DNA of 64,000 bases, taken from NCBI GenBank assembly GCA_033648345.1, contig GCA_033648345.1_4121.1. One strand, written 5' to 3'. Each line of letters opens with the position of its first letter. Position 1 is the stretch's first letter. Made by a program: the position numbers and the translations under genes. This DNA comes from a phage. The notes below the pieces were generated by a model that was not told where the DNA came from, did no database searches, and worked only from the letters and a program-made list of their open reading frames with translations. Positions 881-64,000 of the stretch are shown piece by piece.

Positions 881-1720
881 ATGACAAATAGGCCGAAGCG
901 TAAAAAGTATCTTAACAATGCTGATTTACTTCGTGAGATACAAAAAAGTAAAATCTCATATTGCTGGTTACTTGATAAGTGCTACAGTATGTACGATTAT
1001 ATCGTTTTTGATGAATCCGAAATCACAGCAGAACTTTTAGATAAAGCTAAAGCAGCACGTATTAAACGTCTCAACAATGAAATGCTTGATGCAATTCGTG
1101 AAAAAGAAGGTATGAGTGCGAAGAAAGCGAAGGAATACGCAGATGAGCACAATTTAGTACTGACTGATGTACCTATCGATGAGGTGGTTATTCGTGTAAT
1201 TACCGATGAACATATCCCAGCAGATACAAGAGTTAATTTTGAACCATTCAAACATTACATTGTAGATGAAGAAGGTATTCTGTACGAAGTCGTTCGTTCT
1301 CACTGGAAAGGTGATCTTGAAGACGGAGAATTCAGTACTGTTCATGGTAAAATCACTAATGAACTAGGTAAAATGTTCATTAAACTGGCAGAGGAAATCT
1401 CACACAAATCCAACTATAGAAACTATACATATTTGGATGAAATGATGGGTGATGCCAGAATACAATTAGTTAAAAACGCACTTCTCTTTAAAGAGAGTAT
1501 TCTTTACAAAAAAGATAAACCAGCAGTACAGTTGAATCCTTTCTCTTACTATACTTCGTTCGTTAACAATAGTTTCCGTTCTATTCTTAATAGTGAGAAA
1601 AATGTTCGTAACATCCGAGACGATTTACTTGAGATGCATGGTTTTACACCATCACACACTCGTCAAATCGAAATTGAAATGAACATGATTGAAAGGAAAA
1701 ACGAAGATGGCTCTATTTGA
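881..1720 (+). CDS. 55: late-transcription sigma factor gp55-like
   Basis: N-terminus RKKYLNNADLLREIQ resembles T4 gp55 N-terminus (YNYVNNKELLQAI); ATG at 881 with GGAG RBS; lies next to genes 47/46 as in T4; longer than T4 gp55. Confidence 0.7.
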   Translation: MTNRPKRKKYLNNADLLREIQKSKISYCWLLDKCYSMYDYIVFDESEITAELLDKAKAARIKRLNNEMLDAIREKEGMSAKKAKEYADEHNLVLTDVPIDEVVIRVITDEHIPADTRVNFEPFKHYIVDEEGILYEVVRSHWKGDLEDGEFSTVHGKITNELGKMFIKLAEEISHKSNYRNYTYLDEMMGDARIQLVKNALLFKESILYKKDKPAVQLNPFSYYTSFVNNSFRSILNSEKNVRNIRDDLLEMHGFTPSHTRQIEIEMNMIERKNEDGSI

Positions 1721-5500: not shown

Positions 5501-5530
5501 GTGAGACACTTTTGAATTTGGTGCTATAAT
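5501..5530 (+). promoter_or_regulatory. early-type promoter of the ORF-free candidate RNA locus
   Basis: gtgagacacttttgaatttggtgctataat. Confidence 0.5.
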
Positions 5531-9646: not shown

Positions 9647-11383
9647 ATGAGTTGGAAACGACATATGACAATGGGGAGATCGAAGTTATCGGTCGTCCCT
9701 AATCAGTCCAGTAATAGCAACAAATCAACAGGAACGAAAACCAATTTCGCTTCCTATCTTCCAGTAGTATACAATGGTTTAGCTAACCGTACTGAACGTT
9801 ATAGTCAGTATGAACAGATGGACCAAGATCCTGAAATTAGAACAGCACTTAATATCATTGCTGACTTCTGTACACAAAGTACTGAAGATTTTGGTCTTCC
9901 ATATAAAATCAAATATAAAGATGATATTGGTGATACAGAAGTAACTACTATTGAAGACCGTTTGGATGCATGGACTGAACAAAATGATTTTAAAACCAGA
10001 ATGTATGAAATTGTACGTGGCCTATTAAAATACGGTGACCAATTCTTCATTCGTGACCCAGAAACATTTGACTGGTACTGGGTAAGCCCAAAAAACGTTG
10101 AACAAGTATTCGTTAACGAAGCAACCGGAAAAACCCCTGTAATTTATTATATCCGTGACGTATCTTTGAATCTTAAAGATAAAGTGTTTAGTAACTTGCA
10201 AGTTGGTTTTGACAAAACTGCATATCCTGGTGCAATCCCTACCACATTAGGTGGCGGTGGTTCAGTAGCAGCAGGTGGTGCATCTGGCTTTACTAACCAA
10301 GGAAACTCTGCTGACCCATTCAGTACTAACGGTCGTCTTGATGTTATTCCAGTTGGTGCAGAACACGTAATTCATCTAACCCTAAATACAGGACAAGATG
10401 GAGTTTGGCCTTTTGGTACTAGTATACTTGAAGATGTTTTCAAAGTCTATAAACAAAAAGAATTACTTGAAGATAGTATTATTATCTATCGTGTTCAACG
10501 TGCTCCAGAGCGTCGTGTATTTAAAATCGACGTTGGTGATATGCAAACTCACCAAGCAATGGCATACGTAGAACGATTCAAAAATGAAATTCACCAAAGA
10601 CGTATCCCTTCAAATAAAGGTGGCAGTACTTCTCTAATGGATGCAGCATATAATCCATTAAGTATTCTAGAAGATTACTTCTTCCCACAAACTTCTGAAG
10701 GTCGTGGTTCAGATGTACAAACACTTCCTGGTGGTGATAACTTAGGTCAGATTGATGACTTGCGTTACTTCAACAATAAATTGATTCGTGGATTGCAAAT
10801 TCCAGCTTCATATCTACCGCAAGGTCCAGATGATGGTGGTGTATCACTATTTGGTGATGGTGCAACACAAGCAATGGCAAGTGAATTACGTTTTAATAAC
10901 CAATGTATGCGTTATCAACGTTTGGTTGCAAAACTATTTGATGCAGAATTTAAACGTTTTATGGTTAAAAATGGATATAACATTAGTACTTCATCTTTTG
11001 AAGTAATTATGAATCCACCTATTAACTTGGCTTCTTATCGTAAAGCGGAACTAGATGCTAAACTAATTAACACCTATCTCCCACTTAACGATCTGCCATA
11101 TATGGCAAAACAAACTATTCTTGAAAAAATGGGCTTCTCTAAAGCTGATATTGTTAAGAATGAGCAAATGTGGCTCCAAGAAAATCCACAAGATGGTTCT
11201 GCTCCGTCAAGTGGTGAAGAAGATGCTGCTGGGTTGCAATCTGTTGGTATAGATGCTCCTAACGATCCTGGTATGGATTTGGGTATTGATGGTGACGGTA
11301 ACTTAGAAAGTGCCGATGCTGAATACCAAGAACAACAAGGAAGTGCAGGTTTTAACCCGAATAATTTAGGCGATTCTTTTTAA
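9647..11383 (+). CDS. 20: portal vertex protein gp20
   Basis: Blocks IYRVQRAPERRVFKIDVGDM and TLPGGDNLGQIDDLRYF match T4 gp20 ([37 protein letters not shown]). Confidence 0.85.
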   Translation: MSWKRHMTMGRSKLSVVPNQSSNSNKSTGTKTNFASYLPVVYNGLANRTERYSQYEQMDQDPEIRTALNIIADFCTQSTEDFGLPYKIKYKDDIGDTEVTTIEDRLDAWTEQNDFKTRMYEIVRGLLKYGDQFFIRDPETFDWYWVSPKNVEQVFVNEATGKTPVIYYIRDVSLNLKDKVFSNLQVGFDKTAYPGAIPTTLGGGGSVAAGGASGFTNQGNSADPFSTNGRLDVIPVGAEHVIHLTLNTGQDGVWPFGTSILEDVFKVYKQKELLEDSIIIYRVQRAPERRVFKIDVGDMQTHQAMAYVERFKNEIHQRRIPSNKGGSTSLMDAAYNPLSILEDYFFPQTSEGRGSDVQTLPGGDNLGQIDDLRYFNNKLIRGLQIPASYLPQGPDDGGVSLFGDGATQAMASELRFNNQCMRYQRLVAKLFDAEFKRFMVKNGYNISTSSFEVIMNPPINLASYRKAELDAKLINTYLPLNDLPYMAKQTILEKMGFSKADIVKNEQMWLQENPQDGSAPSSGEEDAAGLQSVGIDAPNDPGMDLGIDGDGNLESADAEYQEQQGSAGFNPNNLGDSF

Positions 11384-11456
11384 TCATAAATAACAATGTA
11401 TAAGAATGAGGGTACATTAGTTGCCCTCATTATAATGCATATTCAAAGGAGATGAA

Positions 11457-11684
11457 ATGTTAAAGGACATCTTTGAATCTAGCAGTGATTCTTTATACGA
11501 CCCTGAAGATGATCAGAACGTATATAAAATTACTGATTCCAGAAAACCAAAACTAACATTACAAGTACTTAATAATTTAAGAAAGTACCGTGAATTTAAA
11601 GCTAATGAAGAACAACGACGCAAAAATGTTGTCGCTGTTGTTTATGCAGCAGCACCATCCGGTGATGGTTCAGGATTAATGTAA
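11457..11684 (+). CDS. small prohead core protein-like (gp67 position)
   Basis: 75-aa ORF between portal and protease genes, the position of gp67 in T4. Confidence 0.4.
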   Translation: MLKDIFESSSDSLYDPEDDQNVYKITDSRKPKLTLQVLNNLRKYREFKANEEQRRKNVVAVVYAAAPSGDGSGLM

Positions 11685-11721
11685 ACAAAAATCGCACTTT
11701 TTAAAGCTTTTAAAAATGGCG

Positions 11722-11752
11722 AAATTTTTCAGTACTAAATAATATCATACTT
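11722..11752 (+). promoter_or_regulatory. conserved late-promoter block (copy 1)
   Basis: aaatttttcagtactaaataatatcatact; near-identical copy at 14474..14505. Confidence 0.5.
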
Positions 11753-11784
11753 TATATGAATGTAATATATCTATGGAGGATATA

Positions 11785-12615
11785 ATGGCGAATTTAAAAC
11801 TACTACAAGAAGCAATTGAAGCGTTTGCAAACGGCGAACAGGATGTTGCTGATAAAAAAATGCGTAAGTACTTTGTTGAGCAAGCTCAAGAAATCAATAA
11901 AGAACTAGAAGAAAGCATGGACGAAGAAGAATGTGAAGTTGAAGTCAAAGACGAAGAAAAACTTGACGAAGACTTTGATGTTCAACCAGACGCTGGTCTA
12001 AATGCTGAAATCGAATACACCCTAGGTGAAGAAGATGAAAGTGCCGAAGAAGAAGTTGAATTCTCTGCTGATGCTGATGGCGAAGAAGTTGACGCTGAAG
12101 CAGAAGTTGGTGCAGAAGTTCCTTCCGAAGACCAATGGGAATCTATTCAAGATGCTTTCCGTGGCCTACAACAAATGTTTGACGAAATCGGCGGTGATGA
12201 AGTTGACCTAGGTTCTGAAGACGAAGTTGAAGTTGGTGCGGAAGAAGAATTCGGTGCTGATGGTGAAGAATCTGAAGACGAATTTGCTGATGTACAATTC
12301 GGTGATGAGAAAGTTGGTGAGTCTTTCAAACTTAAGCAAGTTGCTGCGGTTGATAAGAAAGAAAAAGCTGGCGTTAATACCAAGTCTCCAGTTGCTCCAG
12401 AAGCTAAATCTCCAGTTCAAGGTGTTGCTCCAGTGAAATTCGCTAAAGCTTCCGAAAAACAAGTAGATTATGATTTTGAAAACGAAGATGCTATGTCTCA
12501 CACTGATGAAGACCTAGGTAAAAATGCTCGTGGCGAAATGAAAGATGTTGCGAAGCCAAAAAATACCGCTTCTAAATCTCGTTCTCCACTACCAAAATCA
12601 CAACCAAAAATCTAA
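11785..12615 (+). CDS. highly acidic prohead core/scaffold-associated protein
   Basis: Extremely Asp/Glu-rich; ATG 11785 preceded by GGAGGA; conserved late promoter block upstream; between gp67-like and gp21. Confidence 0.45.
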   Translation: MANLKLLQEAIEAFANGEQDVADKKMRKYFVEQAQEINKELEESMDEEECEVEVKDEEKLDEDFDVQPDAGLNAEIEYTLGEEDESAEEEVEFSADADGEEVDAEAEVGAEVPSEDQWESIQDAFRGLQQMFDEIGGDEVDLGSEDEVEVGAEEEFGADGEESEDEFADVQFGDEKVGESFKLKQVAAVDKKEKAGVNTKSPVAPEAKSPVQGVAPVKFAKASEKQVDYDFENEDAMSHTDEDLGKNARGEMKDVAKPKNTASKSRSPLPKSQPKI

Positions 12616-12646
12616 CACTAAATAAAGAAAAGGAAAGGAGATCATT

Positions 12647-13267
12647 ATGAGTATGATTCGTGAATGGTCTTCATTCAATGATTCTAAAGTTGTTTTGGAA
12701 CATCGTGATAATGGACTTGGTGGGCGTGATTGCTATCTTCGTGGTATTGCTATTCAAGCCGATCAAAGAAATTTAAATGAGAGAATTTACCCTTTAGCCG
12801 AAATTACTAAAGCTGTTAATAATATGGCTCAACGTTTGGCTAAAGGTGAAAGTATTCTAGTTGAATGTGACCACCCCGAAACACTAACAATTAACCTTGA
12901 CCGTGTAGCAGCAATGATTACTAAGGTCTGGATGGAAGGTGCTAACGGCATGGCAGAAATCAAACTACTTGATACTGCTCATGGTACTAATATTCGTAAA
13001 ATGCTAGAAGCTGGTGTGAAACTTGGTGTAAGTTCTCGTGGTTCCGGTAACGTGGATTACAATGGAATAGTTTCTGATTTTGAAATTATCACAATTGATA
13101 TTGTTGCTCAACCTAGTGCTCCAGAGGCATACCCTACTGCGGTTTTTGAATCTCTGATGAGTAAGTACGGATCACCTTGTAATAGTCCTAAAAAAATCAC
13201 AGAATCTAAAACAGTAAATAATGTAGATTCTGAAATTTACGATTTTTTCAAGAAATTAAAAGGTTAA
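12647..13267 (+). CDS. 21: prohead core protease gp21
   Basis: 206 aa, size and position of T4 gp21; motifs VECDHPE and GVSSRGSG. Confidence 0.7.
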   Translation: MSMIREWSSFNDSKVVLEHRDNGLGGRDCYLRGIAIQADQRNLNERIYPLAEITKAVNNMAQRLAKGESILVECDHPETLTINLDRVAAMITKVWMEGANGMAEIKLLDTAHGTNIRKMLEAGVKLGVSSRGSGNVDYNGIVSDFEIITIDIVAQPSAPEAYPTAVFESLMSKYGSPCNSPKKITESKTVNNVDSEIYDFFKKLKG

Positions 13268-13278
13268 CATTTTAAAAA

Positions 13279-13286
13279 TATAAATA
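13279..13286 (+). promoter_or_regulatory. T4-type late promoter core TATAAATA upstream of scaffold gene
   Basis: Exact TATAAATA about 48 nt upstream of ATG 13334. Confidence 0.5.
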
Positions 13287-13333
13287 TTTGTATGTTGAAG
13301 TACAGATATTTCAGTACTTAAAGGAGAGAACGA

Positions 13334-14449
13334 ATGTCTAAATTAGAAAAGCTTCTAAAAGAATCATCTCTTTCTGATGAGGCAAAACAGCTAATTCAGG
13401 AAGCATGGAATGAAGAAAAAAACACACTTGCCGCAGAAATGCGTGAAGAAATGAAAGGCCGCTACAAACAAGATTTGTCTGAGCTAACCGAAGGTCTAAA
13501 TACTATGGTTACTCAAGTTATCGCTGAAGAAATGGGTGCAGTATATGAAGAGAAAAAACGTCTTGTAGAAGATCGTGTAACTCTCCGCAAAACCCTAAGT
13601 AATTTCTCTGCGTTTTCTAACTCTGTTTTGGCTGAAGAAGTTAAACAAATGCGTAAAGAACGTAAGCATCTTCAAGAATGCATGGGTAAATTCGTTAATT
13701 TCTCTAACGGTATCCTAGCAGAAGAGCTAAAAGAATTCCACATCGAGAAACGTCAACTAGTTGAAACTCGCGTTAAACTACTAGCTGAAGGCTCCCGTCA
13801 AATTGCTGAAGCACGTAACAACTTCATCAAACGTACATCTGAAAGTGCTGCTAAATATATTGCAGAAACTACTCAGAAAAACCTATACGCTTTGAAAGAA
13901 GATCTTGTTGAAGCAAAACAAAATATGTTTGGTCGTAAAATCTTTGAAGCATTTGCTCAAGAGTTTAATGTCAAACAATTTAATGAGAATTCACTACTAC
14001 GTTCCCTAACTGAATCAATCAAGTCTAAAGAAGACGAAATTGCTCAAGTTAAGAAAGAACTAAATGAAACTGTAAGTGAAGTTAAAGCTGCTAAAACCAA
14101 ACTACGTATTATGGAAGATTCACAAGCTCGTAATGCGATTATGTCTGAACTAGTTAAGCCACTAACTACACAACAGAAACAAATTATGGAATCCCTTCTA
14201 GCTACTTCTCCTACAGAAAAGCTTAAAGACGATTTCAGCAAGTACCATAAGTCAGTACTTAACGGTACTAAAGTAAATGAATCTGCTACCACTCGTCAAG
14301 CAGTTCAGTCTTCCGCTAAGAGAACTCTTGCAGAAGGTAAAGTAATCACTGGCAACCGTCAGGCTATTGTTGAAAGCGAAGAAATGACCGCTGACGATAT
14401 GGCATTCCTAAAAGAACTCGATGTTCTTTCTGGTATCAATAAAAAATAA
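13334..14449 (+). CDS. 22: prohead scaffold protein gp22-like
   Basis: Glu/Lys-rich predicted coiled coil; perfect TATAAATA late promoter at 13279..13286; immediately upstream of major capsid gene. Confidence 0.6.
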   Translation: MSKLEKLLKESSLSDEAKQLIQEAWNEEKNTLAAEMREEMKGRYKQDLSELTEGLNTMVTQVIAEEMGAVYEEKKRLVEDRVTLRKTLSNFSAFSNSVLAEEVKQMRKERKHLQECMGKFVNFSNGILAEELKEFHIEKRQLVETRVKLLAEGSRQIAEARNNFIKRTSESAAKYIAETTQKNLYALKEDLVEAKQNMFGRKIFEAFAQEFNVKQFNENSLLRSLTESIKSKEDEIAQVKKELNETVSEVKAAKTKLRIMEDSQARNAIMSELVKPLTTQQKQIMESLLATSPTEKLKDDFSKYHKSVLNGTKVNESATTRQAVQSSAKRTLAEGKVITGNRQAIVESEEMTADDMAFLKELDVLSGINKK

Positions 14450-14473
14450 ACATTTTAAAGCATTTTAATAATC

Positions 14474-14505
14474 AAATTTTTCAGTTCTATAAATAATATC
14501 ATACT
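14474..14505 (+). promoter_or_regulatory. conserved late-promoter block with TATAAATA (copy 2) upstream of major capsid gene
   Basis: aaatttttcagttctataaataatatcatact. Confidence 0.6.
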
Positions 14506-14539
14506 GAAAAACGAATATAACATCTTTAAGGAGATAATA

Positions 14540-15715
14540 ATGTCACAACTACTAAATGAATCCAAATGGGTAGCAGTTAAAGAGAAACTAGTTGAAGGTC
14601 TACAAGGTACTCGTAAGTCCGTAATGGAAACCGTACTTGATAACCATCGTAAACTAATGCTAAACGAATCTGCTACTTCTGGTGCAACCACCGCTGGTAA
14701 CATCGCTACTCTAAACAAAGTGATTCTACCAATTATGCGTCGTGTTATGCCAACCGTAATCGCTAACGAAATCATCGGTGTTCAGCCAATGACTGGCCCA
14801 GTTGGTCAGATCCACACCCTACGTGTTCAATATGCTGACAACGCTCCTGGTGTTATCGCTGGTGAAGAAATGCTTTCTCCATACAAAATCGCTAAGTCTT
14901 ATACTGGTGACCTAAACGCAGACAACAGCAACCCACAAGCTGCTCCTACTAGCCAACTAGAAGGTACTATGGGTCGTCGCGTTAACATCCGTATTCTACG
15001 TGAAACTGTTGAAGCGAAATCTCGTCGTCTATCTGCACGTTGGACTGTTGAATCTGCACAAGATGCACAATCCCAACATGGTATCGACGTTGAAGCTGAA
15101 CTAATGGCTGCAATCGCTCAAGAAGTTACCGTTGAAATCGACCAAGAGCTACTAAGCCGTCTACGTGCACTACCTGGTGCTGCTGCTGTAACTTATGACC
15201 AATCTAAAGTTACTGGTGTTGCGACCTTCGTTGGTGACGAGCACGCTGCTCTAGCTACCCTAATCAACCGTCAAGCGAACGAAGTTGCTCGTCGTACCAA
15301 ACGTGGTGCTGCGAACTGGGCTGTTGTTTCTCCAACCGCTCTAACCATTCTACAGTCTGCAACTACTTCTAGTTTTGCACGTACTACTGAAGGTACTTTC
15401 GAAGCTCCAACTAACGTTAAATTTGTTGGTACTCTAAACAGCACCATGCGTATCTTCGTTGATACCTATGCAAGTGATGTTGAAGATATCCTAATTGGTT
15501 ACAAAGGTAACGCTGAAACTGATGCTGGTGTGTTCTATTGCCCATACATCCCACTAATGGCTTCCGGTACTGTAATGGACCCTAACACTGGAGAACTCGT
15601 TACAACTTTCTTAACCAGATACGGGTATGTTCAGTTGACCGATAGCACCAGTTCACTAGGTAACGCTGCTGACTACTACAGTAAAATCGCTATCAAAAAC
15701 GTTACTTTCATGTAA
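14540..15715 (+). CDS. 23: major capsid protein (gp23-like, compact form)
   Basis: gp23/gp24-family sequence throughout; TATAAATA late promoter at ~14488; strong terminator downstream; codon usage differs from neighbours. Confidence 0.85.
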   Translation: MSQLLNESKWVAVKEKLVEGLQGTRKSVMETVLDNHRKLMLNESATSGATTAGNIATLNKVILPIMRRVMPTVIANEIIGVQPMTGPVGQIHTLRVQYADNAPGVIAGEEMLSPYKIAKSYTGDLNADNSNPQAAPTSQLEGTMGRRVNIRILRETVEAKSRRLSARWTVESAQDAQSQHGIDVEAELMAAIAQEVTVEIDQELLSRLRALPGAAAVTYDQSKVTGVATFVGDEHAALATLINRQANEVARRTKRGAANWAVVSPTALTILQSATTSSFARTTEGTFEAPTNVKFVGTLNSTMRIFVDTYASDVEDILIGYKGNAETDAGVFYCPYIPLMASGTVMDPNTGELVTTFLTRYGYVQLTDSTSSLGNAADYYSKIAIKNVTFM

Positions 15716-15738
15716 TAATAAAGAATTTAAATATACTA

Positions 15739-15767
15739 GGGACTCTTCGGAGTCCCTTTTCTTTTTT
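15739..15767 (+). terminator. intrinsic terminator after major capsid gene
   Basis: gggactc-ttcg-gagtccc followed by TTTTCTTTTTT. Confidence 0.75.
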
Positions 15768-15779
15768 CAGAAAAAAAGC

Positions 15780-15808
15780 TTGACAAGTAGATTTTAATTA
15801 TATATAAT
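15780..15808 (+). promoter_or_regulatory. consensus sigma70 promoter TTGACA-17-TATAAT
   Basis: Exact TTGACA, 17-nt spacer, exact TATAAT; 36 nt upstream of ATG 15844. Confidence 0.7.
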
Positions 15809-15843: not shown

Positions 15844-16950
15844 ATGCCAAAAGTAAGTATCGACAAAGAAAAATTCATTGAAGAGATGAACAACAAGTAT
15901 GGAGCATATGGTGAATTTGATTTCAGCACTTTAGTATTCAAAGCCAGTAAGACAACAGTTAAATGTAATAAATGCGGAAAAGAAAATACTAAACCTGCAC
16001 TACGTCACATTTCATGTACATGTTCTTCATGTTATTCAAACATGTCACAGCGTTCGAACAACGAAAAATTTATCAGCACGGTAGAAACTAAATTTGGAAA
16101 AGATAAATTCAAATTTGATAAACTAAATTACATTAACGCTATAACAAAAGTAACCATACTCTGCACAGACGAAGAACATAACGATTACTTTGAAATTACA
16201 CCAAACAAATTTCTTACTGGTAAGGGATGTCCTATATGTAATAAAAATGAAGCATACAGTACTGAAGAATTCGTAGAAAAAGTAAAAGAAAATTATGGTG
16301 ATTCATTAGATTTAACTAACACAGTATATGTAAATCAAAAAACTAAAGTAACTGTGTATTGTAAAGCGGGTAACCATGAATGGACAGTTGATCCGAAAAC
16401 TTTACTTGTTGGTAAGACTGGTTGTGGTACATGCTCCGGTAAAGGTGGTCGCAGTACTGAACGTTTCATTGAACTGGTATCACCTATCCATAACCATAAG
16501 TATGATTATAGTTTGGTTGAATATACTATAAGCGAGAATTATGTTGATATTGTATGTCCAACTCATGGTGTTTTCTCCCAACAACCAAAAGCACATATGG
16601 CTGGTAAAGGATGCCCATCATGTGGTGAATATGGATATCAGCCATCAAAACCTGGATATTTCTATGTTCAAAAACTAACTAATAAAGATAAGACAGTGTA
16701 CAAGTATGGAATCACTGGTGATATGAAACGCCGTGTAAATGAGCAAAGTCGTCATTCTGGTTTTGAACACACAGTACTGATAGAACGTTACTTTGAAGAT
16801 GGAAATCAACCATTACTGTTGGAAAAGTTCATAAAGAAATACATTGAAAGTGGTGTTGTAAGTACTGAAGAGTTGCCATCAGGATTTACTGAAACTTTTG
16901 ATGCTAAGTATCTTGAAAGTGTTTTAGAAATTGTAAATACTTTTAAGTAA
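15844..16950 (+). CDS. T5orf172/GIY-YIG-like domain protein with N-terminal Cys-rich repeats (homing-endonuclease-like)
   Basis: Repeated CxxC modules (KCNKCGKEN, GKGCPICNK, GKTGCGTCSGKGG, GKGCPSCGE); C-terminal YFYVQ...YKYGIT...R...E motif; own TTGACA-17-TATAAT promoter. Confidence 0.5.
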   Translation: MPKVSIDKEKFIEEMNNKYGAYGEFDFSTLVFKASKTTVKCNKCGKENTKPALRHISCTCSSCYSNMSQRSNNEKFISTVETKFGKDKFKFDKLNYINAITKVTILCTDEEHNDYFEITPNKFLTGKGCPICNKNEAYSTEEFVEKVKENYGDSLDLTNTVYVNQKTKVTVYCKAGNHEWTVDPKTLLVGKTGCGTCSGKGGRSTERFIELVSPIHNHKYDYSLVEYTISENYVDIVCPTHGVFSQQPKAHMAGKGCPSCGEYGYQPSKPGYFYVQKLTNKDKTVYKYGITGDMKRRVNEQSRHSGFEHTVLIERYFEDGNQPLLLEKFIKKYIESGVVSTEELPSGFTETFDAKYLESVLEIVNTFK

Positions 16951-17713: not shown

Positions 17714-19426
17714 ATGAGCATAAGTTTTAATAACCCACTGGATACTATGACTAGTACTGGTGCTAATGGATCTTTAGAACTAATAGTGCTTGGTGGTACA
17801 CCAACTAATCCAAGACCTATTCGTTTTAATTCATCTTCTGTCATTTTACCAGTACAGGCATTGCCAGCAGGTGAGCAAGGTGCTATGGTATTTGATAGAA
17901 ATGAGTTGGTGTTAAAATACCACAACGGGACAAGTTGGATTGCAGTATACGATACTGATACAATTCTTGAACCAATCCGTATTTCACTCGATGAAGTGAA
18001 CCGTAAACTGAATTTAAAAGTTGAAACAGTAACATATAGTAGTAGTGCTGTTCCAAGTGCGAGCATTAGTGGTACGAATTTAAATATCGTATTCCCTACT
18101 CCATCAAGTAGCGGTAGTGGCCCAACAGGTCTTTACACTTCAATGAAGCCTGGTGCAATTACCCAGTACTCATTGACTTCTGGACAAACTGTTGCTAGTA
18201 TTCGTGAACAGATGTCTGGAGTAACTAATGGTCAAAGTGGTCGTAATGGTACACAAGGTTCTCCGTGGAAAACTTCTGATGGTTGGTGTTTTGCTGATGG
18301 AATGTGGTGGCAATGGGTTGGTGAAAATGGTACAATCACTAAACAAGTTCCAAATCTTAACCAAGAAGCATACTTGAAAGGCATTACCACATCAGGCGTA
18401 ACTAAAACTGATAGTGTGATTGCAAGTAGTGCATCAATTAGTGGTACTGCGATATCAATTGCTCAACTTCCACCGCACTCATTTAGTTTCAGTGGAACTA
18501 CTGGTGCTGCTGGTCGTCATGGTCATAGCCAAGCACTAAAAGGTATGGACAGAAGTGGTCTTAATGCGTTAACATCCAGTAACGACAACGGAATCCCAAC
18601 TGTAATTAATAACATTAACGAAGCACCTGATCACGTGCATAGTTTCAGTGGTTCTACGAATACTGTTGGTAGTGGTCAAGCACACAGCCACGGAATTAGC
18701 AATATTGACGTACCACACTTTAATGTGGCATACTTATATAACATTGCAGAGTCTAACGTTGCATTGAGTGAAAAAGTTGCAAACACCCGTTATGTACTGA
18801 AAACTGGTGATACAATGTCTGGTTCATTGACTATTGCTAACAGTGCAACAATTCGTTCGAATGATACTTCATTAGTACTTTACTTCCGTAACGCTACTAA
18901 TGGTGAACGTGCAGCAATTTATCATAATTCATCTAACAATACATTACGTTTGAGAAGTAATGGTGGTTCTGAAGTTTCTATCAACTCTTCAGGTGTACTA
19001 ACTTCCCCATCGTTAGTTGTTAGTTCTAACTCTGCAACAGTTTCTGGTAAAAACATTGTACGTTCAGTTAACGGTACTGCGGCAGATGCAAGTGGTAATG
19101 TAACTATATCTACCACAACAACTTCTGCGTCATTGACACAAAATGGCTGGCATAAAGATAACAATACTGGTATGATTACCCAGTGGGGATACTTAACTGT
19201 TGGTGACGACTCTTATGTTACTGTAAACTTACCAGTTGCATATCCTAATGCTTGTTTAAATCTACAAGTAACTGGTAGAGTATCCAGAGCACCAGGTAAC
19301 CGTACTTCATTTGCTGGTCATGGTAACATTTTAAGTAACTCACAAATTGCTGTTGGTGCAGCTAACCCTGGTAGTGACGGTGACCACAATGGGCTAGGAG
19401 TGTACTGGACAACAATTGGTTATTAA
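17714..19426 (+). CDS. putative tail fibre / receptor-binding protein
   Basis: Ser/Thr/Gly/Asn-rich 570 aa with HxH motifs (HGHS, HVHS, HSHG) as in T4 fibre tips; late-promoter-like AATAAATA upstream. Confidence 0.5.
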   Translation: MSISFNNPLDTMTSTGANGSLELIVLGGTPTNPRPIRFNSSSVILPVQALPAGEQGAMVFDRNELVLKYHNGTSWIAVYDTDTILEPIRISLDEVNRKLNLKVETVTYSSSAVPSASISGTNLNIVFPTPSSSGSGPTGLYTSMKPGAITQYSLTSGQTVASIREQMSGVTNGQSGRNGTQGSPWKTSDGWCFADGMWWQWVGENGTITKQVPNLNQEAYLKGITTSGVTKTDSVIASSASISGTAISIAQLPPHSFSFSGTTGAAGRHGHSQALKGMDRSGLNALTSSNDNGIPTVINNINEAPDHVHSFSGSTNTVGSGQAHSHGISNIDVPHFNVAYLYNIAESNVALSEKVANTRYVLKTGDTMSGSLTIANSATIRSNDTSLVLYFRNATNGERAAIYHNSSNNTLRLRSNGGSEVSINSSGVLTSPSLVVSSNSATVSGKNIVRSVNGTAADASGNVTISTTTTSASLTQNGWHKDNNTGMITQWGYLTVGDDSYVTVNLPVAYPNACLNLQVTGRVSRAPGNRTSFAGHGNILSNSQIAVGAANPGSDGDHNGLGVYWTTIGY

Positions 19427-19523
19427 AAAATATTGAGACAACTTTTAAAGTAGTGATACAATGTAGTCATCTTACAGCGGTTGTGAGATGACATTTTTTC
19501 AAAACACATGGAGAAGCAAACAA

Positions 19524-19829
19524 ATGGCAAAAGCTAAAAAAGAAGTTAAAGTTGAAATTCGTGACCTAAATGATGAACAACGTAAACGTCTAGGTGATGC
19601 ACTAAACAACGCAGTAGTACAACTTACTTTTATTGACGACACCAAAGCATCCTATGCAGATTTCATTAGTTCCATCTCTGATGAACTAGGTATTGATGCA
19701 TCCGATATCAAACAAGCCGCTCAACGTATCTACAAAGGCGATTACTTTGATAAACAAAACAAACTCGATAACATCGAAACTATCCTAAGTGTTACTAACA
19801 ATTTACCACAAGCAGATGACGATTACTAA
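19524..19829 (+). CDS. hypothetical protein
   Basis: ATG 19524 after GGAG; early-type promoter at 19432..19461; terminator downstream. Confidence 0.5.
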   Translation: MAKAKKEVKVEIRDLNDEQRKRLGDALNNAVVQLTFIDDTKASYADFISSISDELGIDASDIKQAAQRIYKGDYFDKQNKLDNIETILSVTNNLPQADDDY

Positions 19830-19911
19830 TAAGTACTAAAAACTAAACTTTATAGCCTCCAATGAATGGGGGCTTTATTTTTAACTTAATAAACGTAAAG
19901 GAATACAAACG

Positions 19912-26852: not shown

Positions 26853-26884
26853 AAAAATCTCCTTGTCAAATTTTGTGCAGGAAC

Positions 26885-26945
26885 ACCCTGCTTAATATTA
26901 TTTATCAAAAAATATAAACCACATTTAAATTTAAGGCAATATTCC
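26885..26945 (-). promoter_or_regulatory. two late-promoter-like blocks (GATAAATAATAT) upstream of structural paralog genes
   Basis: Reverse complement reads gataaataatatcatagag and gataaataatattaagc. Confidence 0.45.
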
Positions 26946-26973
26946 CTGATCTCTATGATATTATTTATCAAAT

Positions 26974-32220
<5,247 letters not shown>

Positions 32221-32276
32221 GTGATATAATGATGTTTGTCAGGGCAATGAGCCTTGACAAACAGAGTAAAAAAACC

Positions 32277-32306
32277 TTGGGACGGTTAAAAATCCCATGA
32301 TATAAT
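32277..32306 (+). promoter_or_regulatory. early-type promoter upstream of gene 32
   Basis: ttgggacggttaaaaatcccatgatataat. Confidence 0.45.
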
Positions 32307-35972: not shown

Positions 35973-37457
35973 ATGAAAACTTGTAAGCTAACCTTACTGG
36001 ACGAGGTTAATTGTAAATTTGAGGGACTAGATCCCTCAATTCGTCAGAAGATGATTCGTGCAACAGAATATGTACTTCCATACGCTAAGTTCACCCCTGC
36101 TGGTCGTATTGGTCGTTGGGATGGTAAGGTACAGTTTATGAACTTAGGTGGTAGTACTTACTACCACATGTTGGATAAGTTGTTGCCAATCTTAGATGAA
36201 GCAAAAATTGATATTGAACTTGAAGATCATCGTGTCAATTACGGATTCAATTTTGAACCAATTGATGAAGATATTTTTAGTGATGTTGTGTTTGGTGCTG
36301 GACACCACATGGAAGGTAAGTCAATCAAGCTCAGGGAGCATCAGGTGAACGCAGTTAATGCTTGCCTTGCAAACCCACATGGTTTATTATTAGCAGCTAC
36401 AGGGGCTGGTAAAACGCTCATCACAGCGGCATTATCCAAGAAGGTACAGGAGTATGGACGTTCTGTGATTATCGTACCCAGTACTGATTTGGTGCAGCAA
36501 ACATATGATGACTATGTTATGTGTGGTCTTGACACTGGAGTGTTCTATGGTGCACAGAAAGACTTTGGTCACCAACACACAATCACTACCTGGCAGTCAT
36601 TCAACTCTTTGTGGAAGAAAACAAAGAAAGGTGAAATTGAACTGACTGAACAAGACGTTCATGACTTTATTGATGGTGTGGTTTGTGTGATTGTCGATGA
36701 GTGTCAAGGTGCTGGTGGTGATGCATTAGTTCAAGTACTCTCTAAAGTTATGAATAACGTCCCACTTCGCTGGGGATTAACTGGTACAATCCCTAAAGAC
36801 CAAGTTGTCGCAGCGAAGATTAAATGTAACGTTGGTGATGTGATATTTAAAATCACAGCTAAAGAATTACAAGATAAAAAAATACTAAGCACATGTAATG
36901 TGAACTGTATTAAACTTAAAAGTAATTTAAAGTTCGCGTCATATGCAGAAGAATTGAAGTACTTAGTTACTGACCGTGATAGAATGGCATATGTAGCATC
37001 ACTGATAGGTGCGTTAGCAGAATCTGGAAACACGTTAGTACTGGTTGATAGACTTGAAGCTGGTGAATTGCTTTGTGAATTTTTGGGTATTCCTAAGTCA
37101 GAATTTGTTCGTGGGGAAACCAAAAAGAAAGACCGTGAATCTTCATATGGTGAAATTCGCTGGGCTGATAACAAAATACTCATTGCAACCTATGGGGTAG
37201 CAAGTACTGGTATCAGTATTTCTCGTTTGTATAATGTCGTTCTAATCGAACCAGGAAAAAGCTTCGTTCGTACAATACAGTCCATTGGTCGTGGGTTGCG
37301 TCGTGCAGAAGACAAAGACCACGTGGAAATCTTTGATATCAGTGGTACAAACAAATATAGTGCAAAACACTTACGTGAACGTTTACAATACTATAAGGAA
37401 GCACAATATCCTCATAGTATCATAGATGTTAAGGATTGGGAAAATACAGCGGGATAA
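35973..37457 (+). CDS. uvsW: UvsW-like SF2 DNA helicase
   Basis: Walker A ATGAGKT, DECQ box, SIGRG; N-terminal GRWDGKV like T4 UvsW. Confidence 0.8.
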   Translation: MKTCKLTLLDEVNCKFEGLDPSIRQKMIRATEYVLPYAKFTPAGRIGRWDGKVQFMNLGGSTYYHMLDKLLPILDEAKIDIELEDHRVNYGFNFEPIDEDIFSDVVFGAGHHMEGKSIKLREHQVNAVNACLANPHGLLLAATGAGKTLITAALSKKVQEYGRSVIIVPSTDLVQQTYDDYVMCGLDTGVFYGAQKDFGHQHTITTWQSFNSLWKKTKKGEIELTEQDVHDFIDGVVCVIVDECQGAGGDALVQVLSKVMNNVPLRWGLTGTIPKDQVVAAKIKCNVGDVIFKITAKELQDKKILSTCNVNCIKLKSNLKFASYAEELKYLVTDRDRMAYVASLIGALAESGNTLVLVDRLEAGELLCEFLGIPKSEFVRGETKKKDRESSYGEIRWADNKILIATYGVASTGISISRLYNVVLIEPGKSFVRTIQSIGRGLRRAEDKDHVEIFDISGTNKYSAKHLRERLQYYKEAQYPHSIIDVKDWENTAG

Positions 37458-37513
37458 TCCCGCTGTACATGATATAATGTGTCGTATGACAACAACAAGG
37501 AAGTAAAATAAAA

Positions 37514-41327: not shown

Positions 41328-42305
41328 ATGGCTCATCACGGCGTGTTTATGTACCCTTATAACCAAGAAGTATCATTGGGCAATTTTAATATGCCATATA
41401 GCAATGAGAAACTTACAATATACAGAGGTGCAAATAACAATTTATCATTCACAGTGCATAACGCTGATGGAAAATATACATTACTAAAAGATAACGAATA
41501 TCTAACATTCATGATTTTTGATGCTAGAAACAATACTAAATTATTCGATGTAGTTTTGGATAAACAAAAACCATCATGGCTATCAGAAAGTGGACAAGCA
41601 AGACAAACATTAGGTAATAGTAAAAAAGTATATTATGGATGTATTGTTCCTGCTGGTGTAATTCAGGATACTAGTCCTGGTTCAAAATATAGATGGAGTA
41701 TTACTAAAGTAACAATGGATGGTTCCTTGATTGAACCTACACAGTACTTATACACTGGTCTTGATTATGAAGCCTCTGCTGAATTGATAATTTCCGACCA
41801 AGCTGCTCCTGTGTTTGTGCCAAGTATTGAAGTATCTGTTAATAAAAACCCAGCATGGACTACCATCAAACGCTTGTATCATGAACCAATCGCTCGTGGC
41901 GTTATTGGTGAATTTGATATAATGGCAACATCTCCCCTTCCTGCACAAATGCAGTACGGATTAGTTGATGGTCTTAGTACTATTGCAATGTACTTTGATA
42001 AATTCATTGGTAGAATTCAATTACAAGGATGTTTGTGTAATAACGTACCAACTGATAACGAAAACTATAAATGGTTTATTGTTAAATTGGATGGTAAAGA
42101 ATATATCGAAAATGATATTGATGAAAATGGATTCCCTAAAGCGTTAGATGGGATTCAAGCATTTAATTTTAAAGGTAATTACATGTGGTTGCGATTGGTT
42201 GTTTGTATTCATCCTAAGATCGTTCCAGTTCCTTATGACTATGCGGCAGTAAGAAAAGTCTATGACCCACTACTGTCAGTTCCTAAAATTTTGATTCGCA
42301 GGTGA
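41328..42305 (+). CDS. putative late-expressed structural protein
   Basis: ATG 41328 with GGAAGGA RBS; TATAAATT late-promoter-like upstream. Confidence 0.45.
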   Translation: MAHHGVFMYPYNQEVSLGNFNMPYSNEKLTIYRGANNNLSFTVHNADGKYTLLKDNEYLTFMIFDARNNTKLFDVVLDKQKPSWLSESGQARQTLGNSKKVYYGCIVPAGVIQDTSPGSKYRWSITKVTMDGSLIEPTQYLYTGLDYEASAELIISDQAAPVFVPSIEVSVNKNPAWTTIKRLYHEPIARGVIGEFDIMATSPLPAQMQYGLVDGLSTIAMYFDKFIGRIQLQGCLCNNVPTDNENYKWFIVKLDGKEYIENDIDENGFPKALDGIQAFNFKGNYMWLRLVVCIHPKIVPVPYDYAAVRKVYDPLLSVPKILIRR

Positions 42306-42330
42306 GACAAAACAAGTGTTTGTGCTATAA
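42302..42330 (+). promoter_or_regulatory. early-type promoter upstream of primase gene
   Basis: gtgagacaaaacaagtgtttgtgctataat. Confidence 0.5.
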
Positions 42331-42360
42331 TCATTTGTGAGAAATAACAAGGATTAAATT

Positions 42361-45404: not shown

Positions 45405-45797
45405 ATGAAACCATATACTTTCTACACAATTAATACTGTTGTAGATATAGGTGATGGTACAACTCCAACAATCATCGATTCTAAGTTCACAGGTGCTATG
45501 AATTTGTCGAGGTTGTTGGAGGCTATTATGGTACATGATTATCCCATGATGGTAAGTGTAGTAAAAACTGAAATAGATCTATATAAAGATAACAACGCAT
45601 CTTTCTATAATCTTCCAGTTTCATGGGGTAAATGTACTCTTAGTACTTTCAAATTCGCAATACCAATGGATGTTGATTTGCGTTTGAATGGAATACCATT
45701 AGTTTTACCTACAGAATTAAATGGTAAAAGAATTACAAAATTTATCACAACAGGTAATGATACAAATATTAGCATCAGCAAACAGACCTTTTCTTAA
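45405..45797 (+). CDS. hypothetical protein
   Basis: 130-aa ORF. Confidence 0.4.
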   Translation: MKPYTFYTINTVVDIGDGTTPTIIDSKFTGAMNLSRLLEAIMVHDYPMMVSVVKTEIDLYKDNNASFYNLPVSWGKCTLSTFKFAIPMDVDLRLNGIPLVLPTELNGKRITKFITTGNDTNISISKQTFS

Positions 45798-45854
45798 TTG
45801 TGATAAATATCATAAAGCAAGACAGAGGTCTTTTTTATTTTATATGGAGTAATT

Positions 45855-46817
45855 ATGGATATAAACCAAACAGCAGCGGAGCTACAGAAGTTTGCTGACG
45901 CACATAATTTGAATGTTGATGTTTCTGTTGTACTGGATAATATGGATGCGGGTGATTTCATCACACTAAATGCCGCTATGGATAATTCAGATAACCGTGA
46001 AATTTTTCAAATTCTACAAAAGTACAAAGCACAAATGAGTGAAAGTTTCTCATACTTCAGTACTGACAATGTAACTAAACATATTGTTGAAAGTTCTGAT
46101 TGGCATAAGACAGTTGATTCTATGACAATGAAAGACTTAGTTGAAGCATACAAAAGTAACTTCACATACTCTGATGTTTCTAAGTTGAGTATTCAAGAAT
46201 TAAAAACTATTGTGTTTGAAGATTTATCCTCTAACTTGGAAAATCCTGAAAACCAATTGAAATCTACACAGATTGCTAAGATGAATGTGTCCCAGCAACA
46301 ACAGCAAGTTAATCCACAAACCCAAGCAAAACTTAAACAAGCAGAACTACAACGTAATGCTAATAACATTAAAGTTAGTGTTCCTGGTAGTCAAAGCGGT
46401 ACTGATTCAATTGAACCAGTTGTTGGTATTGATGCTGGACAAAATCCACAACAATCATTAGTAGTAACCAAAAGTGGCACTAAGCCAAACGAATTGAATG
46501 TTTTCCCTTTGGATGATGTAACTCCAGTTGACAATCAAAATCAAAGTACTACAATTCGTGAAGAGAAATCACCACAAGAAATTAATAGTGAAGTGATGGG
46601 TGAGCCTGGTATGGAACCAGACGGTAATCCAAATTCACCATCTCCACTAACACAACACGCACCAGGTATGGGTGAAATGATTCATGCAATCGCTGATATC
46701 GAAAAAGAAGATGATATCTATGGTGATGAAAGTGTAATGGCAAACTCTGCACAACAAGAGAATGATGAGATGGTAGATCAAATCATTGATTTCTGTCACC
46801 GTATGCGAGGCCGATAA
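45855..46817 (+). CDS. hypothetical protein
   Basis: 320-aa ORF, Gln/Asn-rich middle. Confidence 0.45.
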   Translation: MDINQTAAELQKFADAHNLNVDVSVVLDNMDAGDFITLNAAMDNSDNREIFQILQKYKAQMSESFSYFSTDNVTKHIVESSDWHKTVDSMTMKDLVEAYKSNFTYSDVSKLSIQELKTIVFEDLSSNLENPENQLKSTQIAKMNVSQQQQQVNPQTQAKLKQAELQRNANNIKVSVPGSQSGTDSIEPVVGIDAGQNPQQSLVVTKSGTKPNELNVFPLDDVTPVDNQNQSTTIREEKSPQEINSEVMGEPGMEPDGNPNSPSPLTQHAPGMGEMIHAIADIEKEDDIYGDESVMANSAQQENDEMVDQIIDFCHRMRGR

Positions 46818-48724: not shown

Positions 48725-48753
48725 CTGAGACAAACAAAAATACGATGCTATAA
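48725..48753 (+). promoter_or_regulatory. early-type promoter upstream of RecB-like nuclease gene
   Basis: ctgagacaaacaaaaatacgatgctataat. Confidence 0.45.
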
Positions 48754-48767
48754 TTAGGAGTACACGG

Positions 48768-55201: not shown

Positions 55202-55231
55202 TTAGGACAAACACCAGAACTGTGCTATAAT
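55202..55231 (+). promoter_or_regulatory. early-type promoter
   Basis: ttaggacaaacaccagaactgtgctataat. Confidence 0.45.

Positions 55232-58171: not shown

Positions 58172-59480
<1,309 letters not shown>

Positions 59481-62858: not shown

Positions 62859-64000
<1,142 letters not shown>

Follow-up and report, generated by a model that had tools for sequence, protein, structure and literature searches.

Late promoters of bacteriophage T4 consist of a TATAAATA box at -13..-6 and an AT-rich segment that is melted, with no -35 element (PMC2988020). For the jumbo phages CBB and GAP32, the motif ATAAATA was predicted earlier by MEME as 'promoter 3', with 35 sites in CBB (Table S7 in PMC5259590), and the authors of the CBB study found no homologue of gp33 or gp45 (PMC5259590). 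The PeSLs of T4-like phages are composite terminator/promoter cassettes that carry early sigma70 promoters; many copies of them are found in hyperplastic regions, where they mediate indels (PMC4122927, PMC2839356). Finally, the T4 genes e, soc, 49 and I-TevI have a late promoter placed inside an inhibitory hairpin (PMC3014915).

Here we analyze two repeated blocks in a stretch of phage DNA of 64,000 nucleotides, referred to below as the window. A megablast search assigned the window to Asteriusvirus (Rak2/121Q-like jumbo coliphages), with 99.7% identity to Escherichia phage BF17, about 89% identity to 121Q and PBECO4, and ~71-74% identity to Klebsiella RaK2, Cronobacter GAP32, Pectobacterium CBB, Yersinia fHe-Yen9-04, Serratia BF, and several Erwinia and Salmonella phages. 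The preliminary description of this DNA had suggested that the blocks are an extended late promoter or a co-activator site specific to this phage. We instead interpret them, with a probability of roughly 70%, as two ordinary T4-style late promoters whose extra likeness comes from adjacent hairpin elements and from homogenization of the two copies, and not from an extended promoter. Each block would represent a composite regulatory cassette ahead of an abundantly needed head gene.

Predicted late promoters of the head module and their presumed reader

The T4-like head module occupies 9.6-15.7 kb of the window and comprises the portal, a 75-aa ORF, a 276-aa virion protein, the prohead protease, the scaffold, and the major capsid protein, in a portal-to-capsid gene order that is identical across ten genomes. 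Two near-identical blocks are indeed present in this module, upstream of a virion structural gene (copy 1) and of the major capsid gene (copy 2), and follow the pattern AAATTTTTCAGT(A/T)C[TA]TAAATAATATCATACT:

11722..11751, plus strand: block copy 1, AAATTTTTCAGTACTAAATAATATCATACT, made up of the U-tract, CAGTAC, the core CTAAATA (11735-11741), the spacer ATATC and the predicted start A 11747
11785..12615, plus strand: virion structural gene downstream of copy 1 (phrog_15696 'virion structural protein', E = 6e-110; BF17 and 121Q annotations)
14474..14505, plus strand: block copy 2, AAATTTTTCAGTTCTATAAATAATATCATACT, with TATAAATA at 14488-14495, the spacer ATATC and the predicted start A 14501
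14540..15715, plus strand: major capsid protein gene (T4 gp23-like) downstream of copy 2 (BF17, 121Q, RaK2 and GAP32 annotations)

The consensus with a single N that had been proposed for the blocks is slightly off, as the copies share an exact 12-mer and an exact 16-mer with one mismatch and a 2-nt indel between them (copy 1 aligned against copy 2 reads AAATTTTTCAGTAC--TAAATAATATCATACT). The exact TATAAATA reported for copy 2 is found as described, and copy 1 carries ACTAAATA (11734-11741) in its place. The gene downstream of copy 1 has the SD sequence GGAGG at 11775-11779; the ATG at 11773 that is given by the ORF finder falls inside this SD region.

A related sequence had also been reported to occur twice upstream of a structural paralogue pair on the minus strand, at 26885..26945. 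One of the two sites is an exact copy, the other is a weaker match, and the quoted interval is a little off. A fifth related site overlaps the terminase stop codon:

26954..26969, minus strand: late promoter GATAAATAATATCATA, the more distal of the two ahead of the structural paralogue pair, with a start predicted at A 26956
26891..26906, minus strand: proximal late promoter GATAAATAATATTAAG (weaker match) of the same pair, predicted start A 26893
30879..30894, plus strand: late promoter GATAAATAATATTATA, overlapping the terminase stop codon, upstream of the gene at 30916-32220 (phrog_13484 'virion structural protein')

PBECO4, UE-S1 and Salmonella phage 7t3 share the distal minus-strand site. 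The proximal promoter is followed, at ~+3, by a 5'-UTR hairpin GCAGG..CCTGC (26865-26895) that is probably a 5' stabilizer; the promoter and the hairpin are conserved together from the E. coli phages to GAP32 and Serratia BF, with differing arms in RaK2 (GTAAG..CTTAC). The resemblance of the sites goes beyond chance: the exact 10-mer TAAATAATAT occurs 5 times in the window vs 0.66 +/- 0.87 in dinucleotide shuffles, a count of 5 being reached in 1 of 100 shuffles, and all five sites are intergenic and located upstream of PHROG virion structural genes or the capsid gene. Loose matching (the 13-mer with at most 2 mismatches or the 10-mer with at most 1 mismatch) did not exceed chance, and only exact or positional motif analysis is informative here.

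The motif survey covered BF17 100-294 kb (194 kb) plus the early region, in total 64% of the genome. Within 100-294 kb, the density of ATAAATA in non-coding DNA is 18-fold that in coding DNA, and no ATAAATA occurs in the 7.6 kb of non-coding DNA of the BF17 early-gene region. In the window, non-coding DNA makes up 8% of the sequence and contains 19 of the 51 NTAAATA sites. A position-by-position count of the 32 intergenic NTAAATA sites that face a gene in the 194 kb of BF17 finds information confined to the core and to an A at +1. The first core position is A or C and rarely T, 23 of the 32 sites have an A 6 nt past the box (+12 when counted from where the core begins), and the core (A/C)TAAATA is located at -12..-6. 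Upstream of the core no position in these sites exceeds 0.25 bit, and neither a -35 nor another upstream element is conserved; the whole set has a mild excess of T at -24..-20. Each of the five window sites has ATATC or ATATT as its spacer.

The core is kept in all five portal-to-capsid intergenic regions of ten genomes from at least seven genera. Across the same ten genomes both blocks are kept as ATAAATAA-N3-CATAC, in which the A of CATAC is +1; the positions orthologous to copy 1 read TATAAATAAT(G/C)ACATAC in other genera, and the orthologous intergenic regions of CBB and GAP32 carry TATAAATAATGACATACC and GATAAATAAAAGCATACAG. The reading of the blocks as late promoters upstream of head genes is well supported, by sequence evidence only, for their right half (CTAAATA or TATAAATA, then AATATC and A), which we regard as a predicted T4-type late promoter. 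This evidence comprises the T4 geometry with an A 6 nt past the box, a gp55-family sigma gene, virion genes downstream, and a core that is kept in at least seven genera. In the proposed mechanism, the E. coli RNA polymerase core with the phage gp55-family sigma would recognize (A/C)TAAATA at -12..-6, the AT-rich spacer would melt, and transcription would start at the A six bases past the box (11747 and 14501); by this geometry the 5' UTRs would be 38 and 39 nt long. Late promoters of this kind are already known, as predictions, for the clade, and a literature search found no mapping of transcript 5' or 3' ends for any Asteriusvirus. The analysis supports T4-style late promoters for the Rak2/121Q-like jumbo phages and offers predicted starts for their most abundant virion genes, which in itself matters little.

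The presumed reader of these late promoters is encoded near the start of the window:

881..1720 (ORF opens at 779/782), plus strand: gp55-family late sigma gene (phrog_12791 and phrog_234 matches)

In a comparison with PHROGs, this ORF matches phrog_12791 'sigma factor for late transcription' (E = 1e-152) and, over aa 161-295, phrog_234 of the gp55 family (E = 1.5e-16), and homologues of T4 genes 47 and 46 are located downstream of it in a T4-like order. Pfam and PDB sequence searches with the sigma returned nothing useful. The ATG at 881 has an SD sequence (GGAGAG) inside the annotated N-terminus and the PHROG match begins at aa 36; the BF17 annotation of this ORF (779-1720) is probably too long. 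Counted from ATG 881, the sigma is ~279 aa long, with ~125 residues N-terminal to the gp55-like region that contain no recognizable domain. The BF17 annotation also includes a clamp-loader subunit.

These ~125 extra residues relative to the gp55 profile match are among the points in favor of an extended late promoter, in which ~12 bp upstream of the core (AAATTTTTCAGT) would contact the long gp55-like sigma, a gp33-like co-activator or alpha-CTD, so that the two strongest head promoters would have a longer recognition sequence in common. The same reading could draw on the weak enrichment of T at -24..-20, on the T-run that both cassettes carry in all genera, 6-11 nt before the core and at about -20 to -30, and on a third site, outside the window at BF17 189254 (minus strand), that reads TTTCAGTACTATAAATAATA. 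We nevertheless consider an extended recognition sequence unlikely, and the original proposal of an extended late promoter or co-activator site unsupported, as the 32 BF17 sites share only the core and the +1 A. T4 late promoters also have no upstream element, and gp33 reads no DNA sequence (PMC2988020); in addition, CAGTACT is over-represented genome-wide, hence its presence is not specific to these sites. The upstream T-tract may contribute modestly to promoter strength.

As a separate observation, a second promoter class, (G/A)(G/A)GACA-N13-TGNTATAAT, is found on the plus strand only and mostly ahead of replication and nucleotide-metabolism genes. It is probably the 'divergent RpoD-like' promoter 2 of CBB/GAP32 (TGAAAC there). 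The TGNTATAAT element was observed 14 times vs 6.2 +/- 2.2 expected. One copy of the class precedes the late sigma gene, where a middle-type promoter (G/A)GGACA-N13-TGCTATAAT lies at 794-823, ahead of ATG 881. The sites are as follows:

794-823, 5501-5530, 26974-27003, 32201-32230 and 32277-32306, plus strand: (G/A)(G/A)GACA-N13-TGNTATAAT
37449-37478, 42302-42331, 48725-48754, 55202-55231 and 59135-59164, plus strand: further sites of the same class

Hairpin elements in the left halves of the blocks

In copy 1, the U-tract of a putative intrinsic terminator, which would close the upstream small gene, makes up the left half:

11692..11729, plus strand: terminator-like hairpin after the 75-aa ORF, with the stem at 11692-11722 and the U-tract TTTTT at 11725-11729

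The start of the block, 'AAATTTTT', is the U-tract of this hairpin, which folds at -7.9 kcal/mol and was missed by a simple terminator consensus scan due to internal stem mismatches. All 16 orthologues out of 16 fold as A-tract/stem/U-tract hairpins (-6.8 to -20.8 kcal/mol), and RNAalifold predicted 16 pairs, 6 of which have compensatory changes; several switches from G.U to A-U were also observed. In Rfam scans, neither the whole window nor 11300-14700 gave a match. The sequence of this segment is not constant even within Asteriusvirus, where the T-run of copy 1 reads ATTTTATTCAGT in 121Q, and the CAGTAC that follows the U-tract is found in Asteriusvirus only (SE_PL has AGTACG). Such variation of the left half of copy 1 within one genus speaks against an extended promoter.

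The left half of copy 2 corresponds to the 5' arm of a hairpin that is found across genera with compensatory changes, and that presumably acts at the RNA and not at the DNA level:

14477..14511, plus strand: hairpin enclosing the capsid-gene late promoter, with the 5' arm TTTTTCAGT at 14477-14485 and the 3' arm ACTGAAAAA at 14503-14511

The 17-nt loop of the capsid hairpin holds the core and the predicted +1, the 5' arm being at -24..-16 and the 3' arm at +3..+11. Its fold (-6.7 kcal/mol, z = -3.4) was matched by 0 of 200 shuffles. All Rak2-like relatives fold alike at the capsid promoter (-5.8 to -9.4 kcal/mol, z = -1.9 to -4.1), including metagenomic contigs with differing arms, among which L025 and L028 keep the hairpin with quite different ones. 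The two arms change together: CAGT/ACTG is replaced by CTGT/ACAG (A-U to U-A) in the GAP32/CBB/Yersinia/Serratia clade, and a C-G pair by U-A in contig L025. Changes on one side only are all G.U-compatible on the sense strand (CAGT/ATTG in RaK2, U.G at the stem base), and none is A.C. Once placed in register, the arms pair in 85.6% of cells, vs at most 64% in slid controls, and both partners are changed in three pairs. The covariation score, obtained with arms registered by hand in 9 distinct sequences that represent perhaps 2-3 independent events, is 0.228 vs 0.122 in shuffles, with 0 of 500 shuffles reaching 0.228.

RNAalifold derived no consensus structure from the unedited MAFFT alignment of the region upstream of the capsid gene, the hairpin being seen only in single-sequence folds and in the manual register. 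Four extra genomes (K64-1, Muenster, XbC2 and Kaldavass) contributed no new hairpin variants, and more distant capsid relatives from IMG/VR (up to ~69% aa identity) could not extend the comparison because they have no intergenic promoter before the capsid gene.

The hairpin bears on several readings of the block. The distance from its 5' arm (T-run/CAGT) to the core shifts by 1-4 nt between genera, which misfits the fixed protein contact expected of an extended promoter; the segment upstream of the core is independently explained by the U-tract in copy 1 and by the hairpin arm in copy 2, both of which covary. Another reading assumes a protein operator, at which a dimeric phage protein bound to the half-sites TTTTCAGT and ACTGAAAA flanking the promoter would time or limit capsid transcription. 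The symmetric change of half-sites from CAGT/ACTG to CTGT/ACAG would also fit a co-evolving dimeric operator, but the spacing of the half-sites changes across genera (loop of 13-18 nt), the G.U-compatible one-sided changes favor RNA pairing, and contigs L025 and L028 retain the hairpin with quite different arms; we judge such an operator to be quite improbable.

The inverted repeat could also be thought to extrude into a cruciform or hairpin when the DNA is supercoiled or being replicated, presenting the core single-stranded to sigma as in the early promoters of phage N4. Although the core is found in the loop of a palindrome in every Rak2-like lineage, and no gp33 homologue was found by the CBB authors, this structure-dependent promoter is in our view very hard to sustain: the phage has no such palindrome at most of its other late promoters, a 17-nt loop on an AT-only 9-bp stem makes a poor cruciform, and G.T pairs of one strand would be A.C mismatches in the complementary one. 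Both the changing spacing and the G.U pattern favor pairing in the sense RNA over both the protein operator and the cruciform.

The capsid hairpin is weak (-6 to -9 kcal/mol), has no U-tract and does not cover the SD sequence. Since the 3' arm ends at 14511, 16 nt short of the SD AAGGAG (14528-14533), and the U-tract is missing, it is neither a classical terminator nor a translational mask of the T4 e/soc/49 type. An outer stem that reaches the SD was obtained in one MFE fold only (z = -1.55) and had no consensus support. Only read-through RNA from the scaffold gene would fold the capsid hairpin, whereas RNA started at the capsid promoter would not contain the 5' arm. Options for its role are 3'-end formation, processing, and insulation.

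Two other loci of the window have a late-promoter core inside a hairpin. At 62860-62917, the loop of a 16-bp terminator hairpin AAAAAACTCCAAGATT ... AATCTTGGAGTTTTTT holds the core GATAAATA, and the SD GGAG belonging to the next gene (ATG 62921) falls within the 3' arm. At 45784-45836, a terminator-like hairpin AGACCTTTTCTT ... AAGACAGAGGTCTTTTTT upstream of the gene at 45855 has GATAAATA in its loop (45802-45809). The layout with a promoter inside a hairpin therefore recurs in this phage. As for the enclosure of late promoters by base pairs in general, shuffled flanks enclose the +1 almost as often. An inverted repeat TTCCCAGAT/ATCAGGGAA around the distal minus-strand promoter was considered as a second enclosed promoter and dropped, as it is absent from PBECO4 and UE-S1.

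As a tentative generalization, which we would regard as possible but doubtful, the capsid late promoter embedded in a conserved hairpin loop in all Rak2-like jumbo phages and the at least two other loci with promoters in terminator loops may belong to a general 'promoter-in-terminator-loop' insulation device, in which the origin of an RNA decides its fate. Read-through RNA would fold and be terminated, processed or silenced, and RNA from the internal promoter would escape. An alternative form of the idea is a late promoter that is sensitive to DNA structure and read by the enlarged gp55-like sigma. The capsid hairpin and the terminator-loop promoters could serve as a small model for the insulation of dense late operons from read-through.

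Several other features were observed in the same region and further downstream. The late promoter of the scaffold gene (TATAAATA, 13279-13286) shares bases with the 5' arm of a hairpin that is conserved (13280-13320), with the arms AATATTTGTA / TACAGATATT here and ATATCTGTAC / GTACAGATAT in GAP32; after this hairpin, a conserved CAGTACTT(T)AAAGGAG is found at the RBS. The capsid gene is followed by a strong intrinsic terminator (AGGGACTCTTCGGAGTCCCT + TTTCTTTTTT, within 15738-15808) and, ~20 nt past it and before the gene at 15844, by a perfect sigma70 consensus promoter TTGACA-17-TATAAT (15780-15808). In the gap that separates the DNA polymerase gene from the gene whose end lies near 19340, BF17 has ~436 bp more than the window (BF17 ~213850-214800 vs window ~19340-19900); the ORF layout of this gap also differs, and the BF17 annotation has there a 'tail fiber assembly protein' and an additional hypothetical ORF.

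Similarity of the two cassettes and the AGTACT palindrome

When the two intergenic regions are aligned from stop codon to start codon, 77 of 108 columns are identical (71%), with copy 2 lacking 11 nt of the terminator base. The local-alignment z for this pair is 17.9, and the next-best of the 45 pairs formed by ten intergenic regions has z = 5.5. The preliminary description had named a block that is part of a duplicated UTR rather than a promoter as grounds for refutation. This proved half right, in that the block lies within a ~100-nt cassette that is alignable end to end and consists of a terminator remnant, the promoter, the 5' UTR and the RBS.

Similarity between the cassettes within one genome is high in the window, 121Q and A4 (z = 16-18) and low in SE_PL, RaK2, GAP32, CBB, fHe-Yen9-04, Serratia BF and Hallingskeid (z = 2.3-4.9), where only the T-run, ATAAATAA-N3-CATAC and the RBS are common to both cassettes. 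The suggestion that the block is specific to this phage does not hold in that form: the architecture is clade-wide, and the near-identity past the core is a feature of Asteriusvirus only. In the other genera copy 1 has one common form, with a T-run, 6-9 variable nt and TATAAATAATGACATAC, and so the copy 1 of Asteriusvirus seems to have changed in the direction of copy 2. We propose that two anciently related cassettes, each with a terminator or hairpin and a late promoter, would have been homogenized by recombination or gene conversion in the Asteriusvirus lineage. Homogenization is plausible because PeSLs of T4-like phages are known recombination substrates (PMC4122927); gene conversion as the process is inferred from the sequence pattern.

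A simpler history would be an accident, in which a recent duplication or conversion copied one cassette and only the 7-bp core is under selection. The restriction of the very high similarity to Asteriusvirus agrees with it. However, the T-run, ATAAATAA-N3-CATAC, the terminator and the capsid hairpin are each kept across genera in which the flanking genes are only ~70% identical, and compensatory changes are found in both hairpins; an accident alone is improbable. The covarying hairpin around the capsid promoter and the evidence for homogenization, as discussed above, are the modestly new items of this work. They also call for caution in the interpretation of near-identical intergenic blocks in recombinogenic phages, as these can reflect cassette homogenization and RNA elements instead of a longer recognition site.

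A side observation on the palindrome AGTACT seems more surprising than the repeated promoter blocks. AGTACT is present 119 times in the window vs ~22 expected from base composition, and the octamer CAGTACTG 24 times vs 1.2 +/- 1.1 in dinucleotide shuffles, so that the over-representation of (C)AGTACT(G) in the window ranges from about 4-fold (hexamer) to 11-20-fold (octamer). In coding regions, AGTACT was counted 108 times vs 28 +/- 5 after synonymous-codon shuffling, and in all three frames. Examples of (C)AGTACT(G) are found at 1333, 3698, 16257, 27480 and 55775, and also at the BF17 loci L001 and L011-L014; one instance, CAGTACT at 11730-11736, belongs to copy 1. AGTACT is 12-fold enriched in the early region of BF17 and is located there within the spacers of sigma70 promoters (TTGACA..CAGTACTGTATAAT). 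It is 3-7-fold enriched in other Rak2-like contigs; the enrichment extends over the clade of Rak2-like phages and is absent in more distant relatives. These counts suggest a signal at the DNA or RNA level, which may be, for example, a binding, modification or nicking site. A literature search for AGTACT enrichment found no report.

Comparison with T4 late promoters, promoter 3 and PeSLs

The late promoters described here are similar to those of T4 in having an A/T box of the 8-bp class that precedes the start by one helical turn, in the AT-rich segment between the two and the missing -35 element, in the phage-encoded sigma of the gp55 family, and in their location ahead of virion genes. Unlike in T4, conservation does not extend to position -13, and either A or C stands at -12; this leaves an effective core of (A/C)TAAATA, which resembles the T4 A(-13) variants and the variant consensus of Aeh1. 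The sigma is also longer, with about 279-312 aa here vs 185 aa in T4. The correspondence to 'promoter 3' of CBB and GAP32 is direct: the motif, the orthologous intergenic regions and the phage clade are the same. The reports on 'promoter 3' give 14-mers only, and the flanking terminator, the hairpin and the twin cassettes are not described there (PMC5259590).

As in PeSLs, a small unit of stem-loop and promoter is repeated between genes and is evidently able to recombine. The putative copy 1 terminator (11692-11729) abuts the core, and the 71% identity of the cassettes parallels the near-identity of PeSL copies. Unlike PeSLs, the unit contains a late promoter, is present in two copies only and belongs to a conserved head-gene core, with no associated gene shuffling seen. 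By promoter class, copy number and genomic location, the cassettes are outside the definition of PeSLs.

The closest parallel for copy 2, and for the hairpin at 62860-62917, is provided by T4 e, soc, 49 and I-TevI, in that the promoter and the start are located inside a hairpin which promoter-initiated RNA cannot fold. At 62860-62917 the likeness to e, soc and 49 extends to the RBS, which only promoter-initiated RNA would expose. The capsid hairpin differs from the e/soc/49 type, as its 3' arm leaves the SD free and translation is not obviously masked, and the transcripts that arrive from upstream are themselves late.
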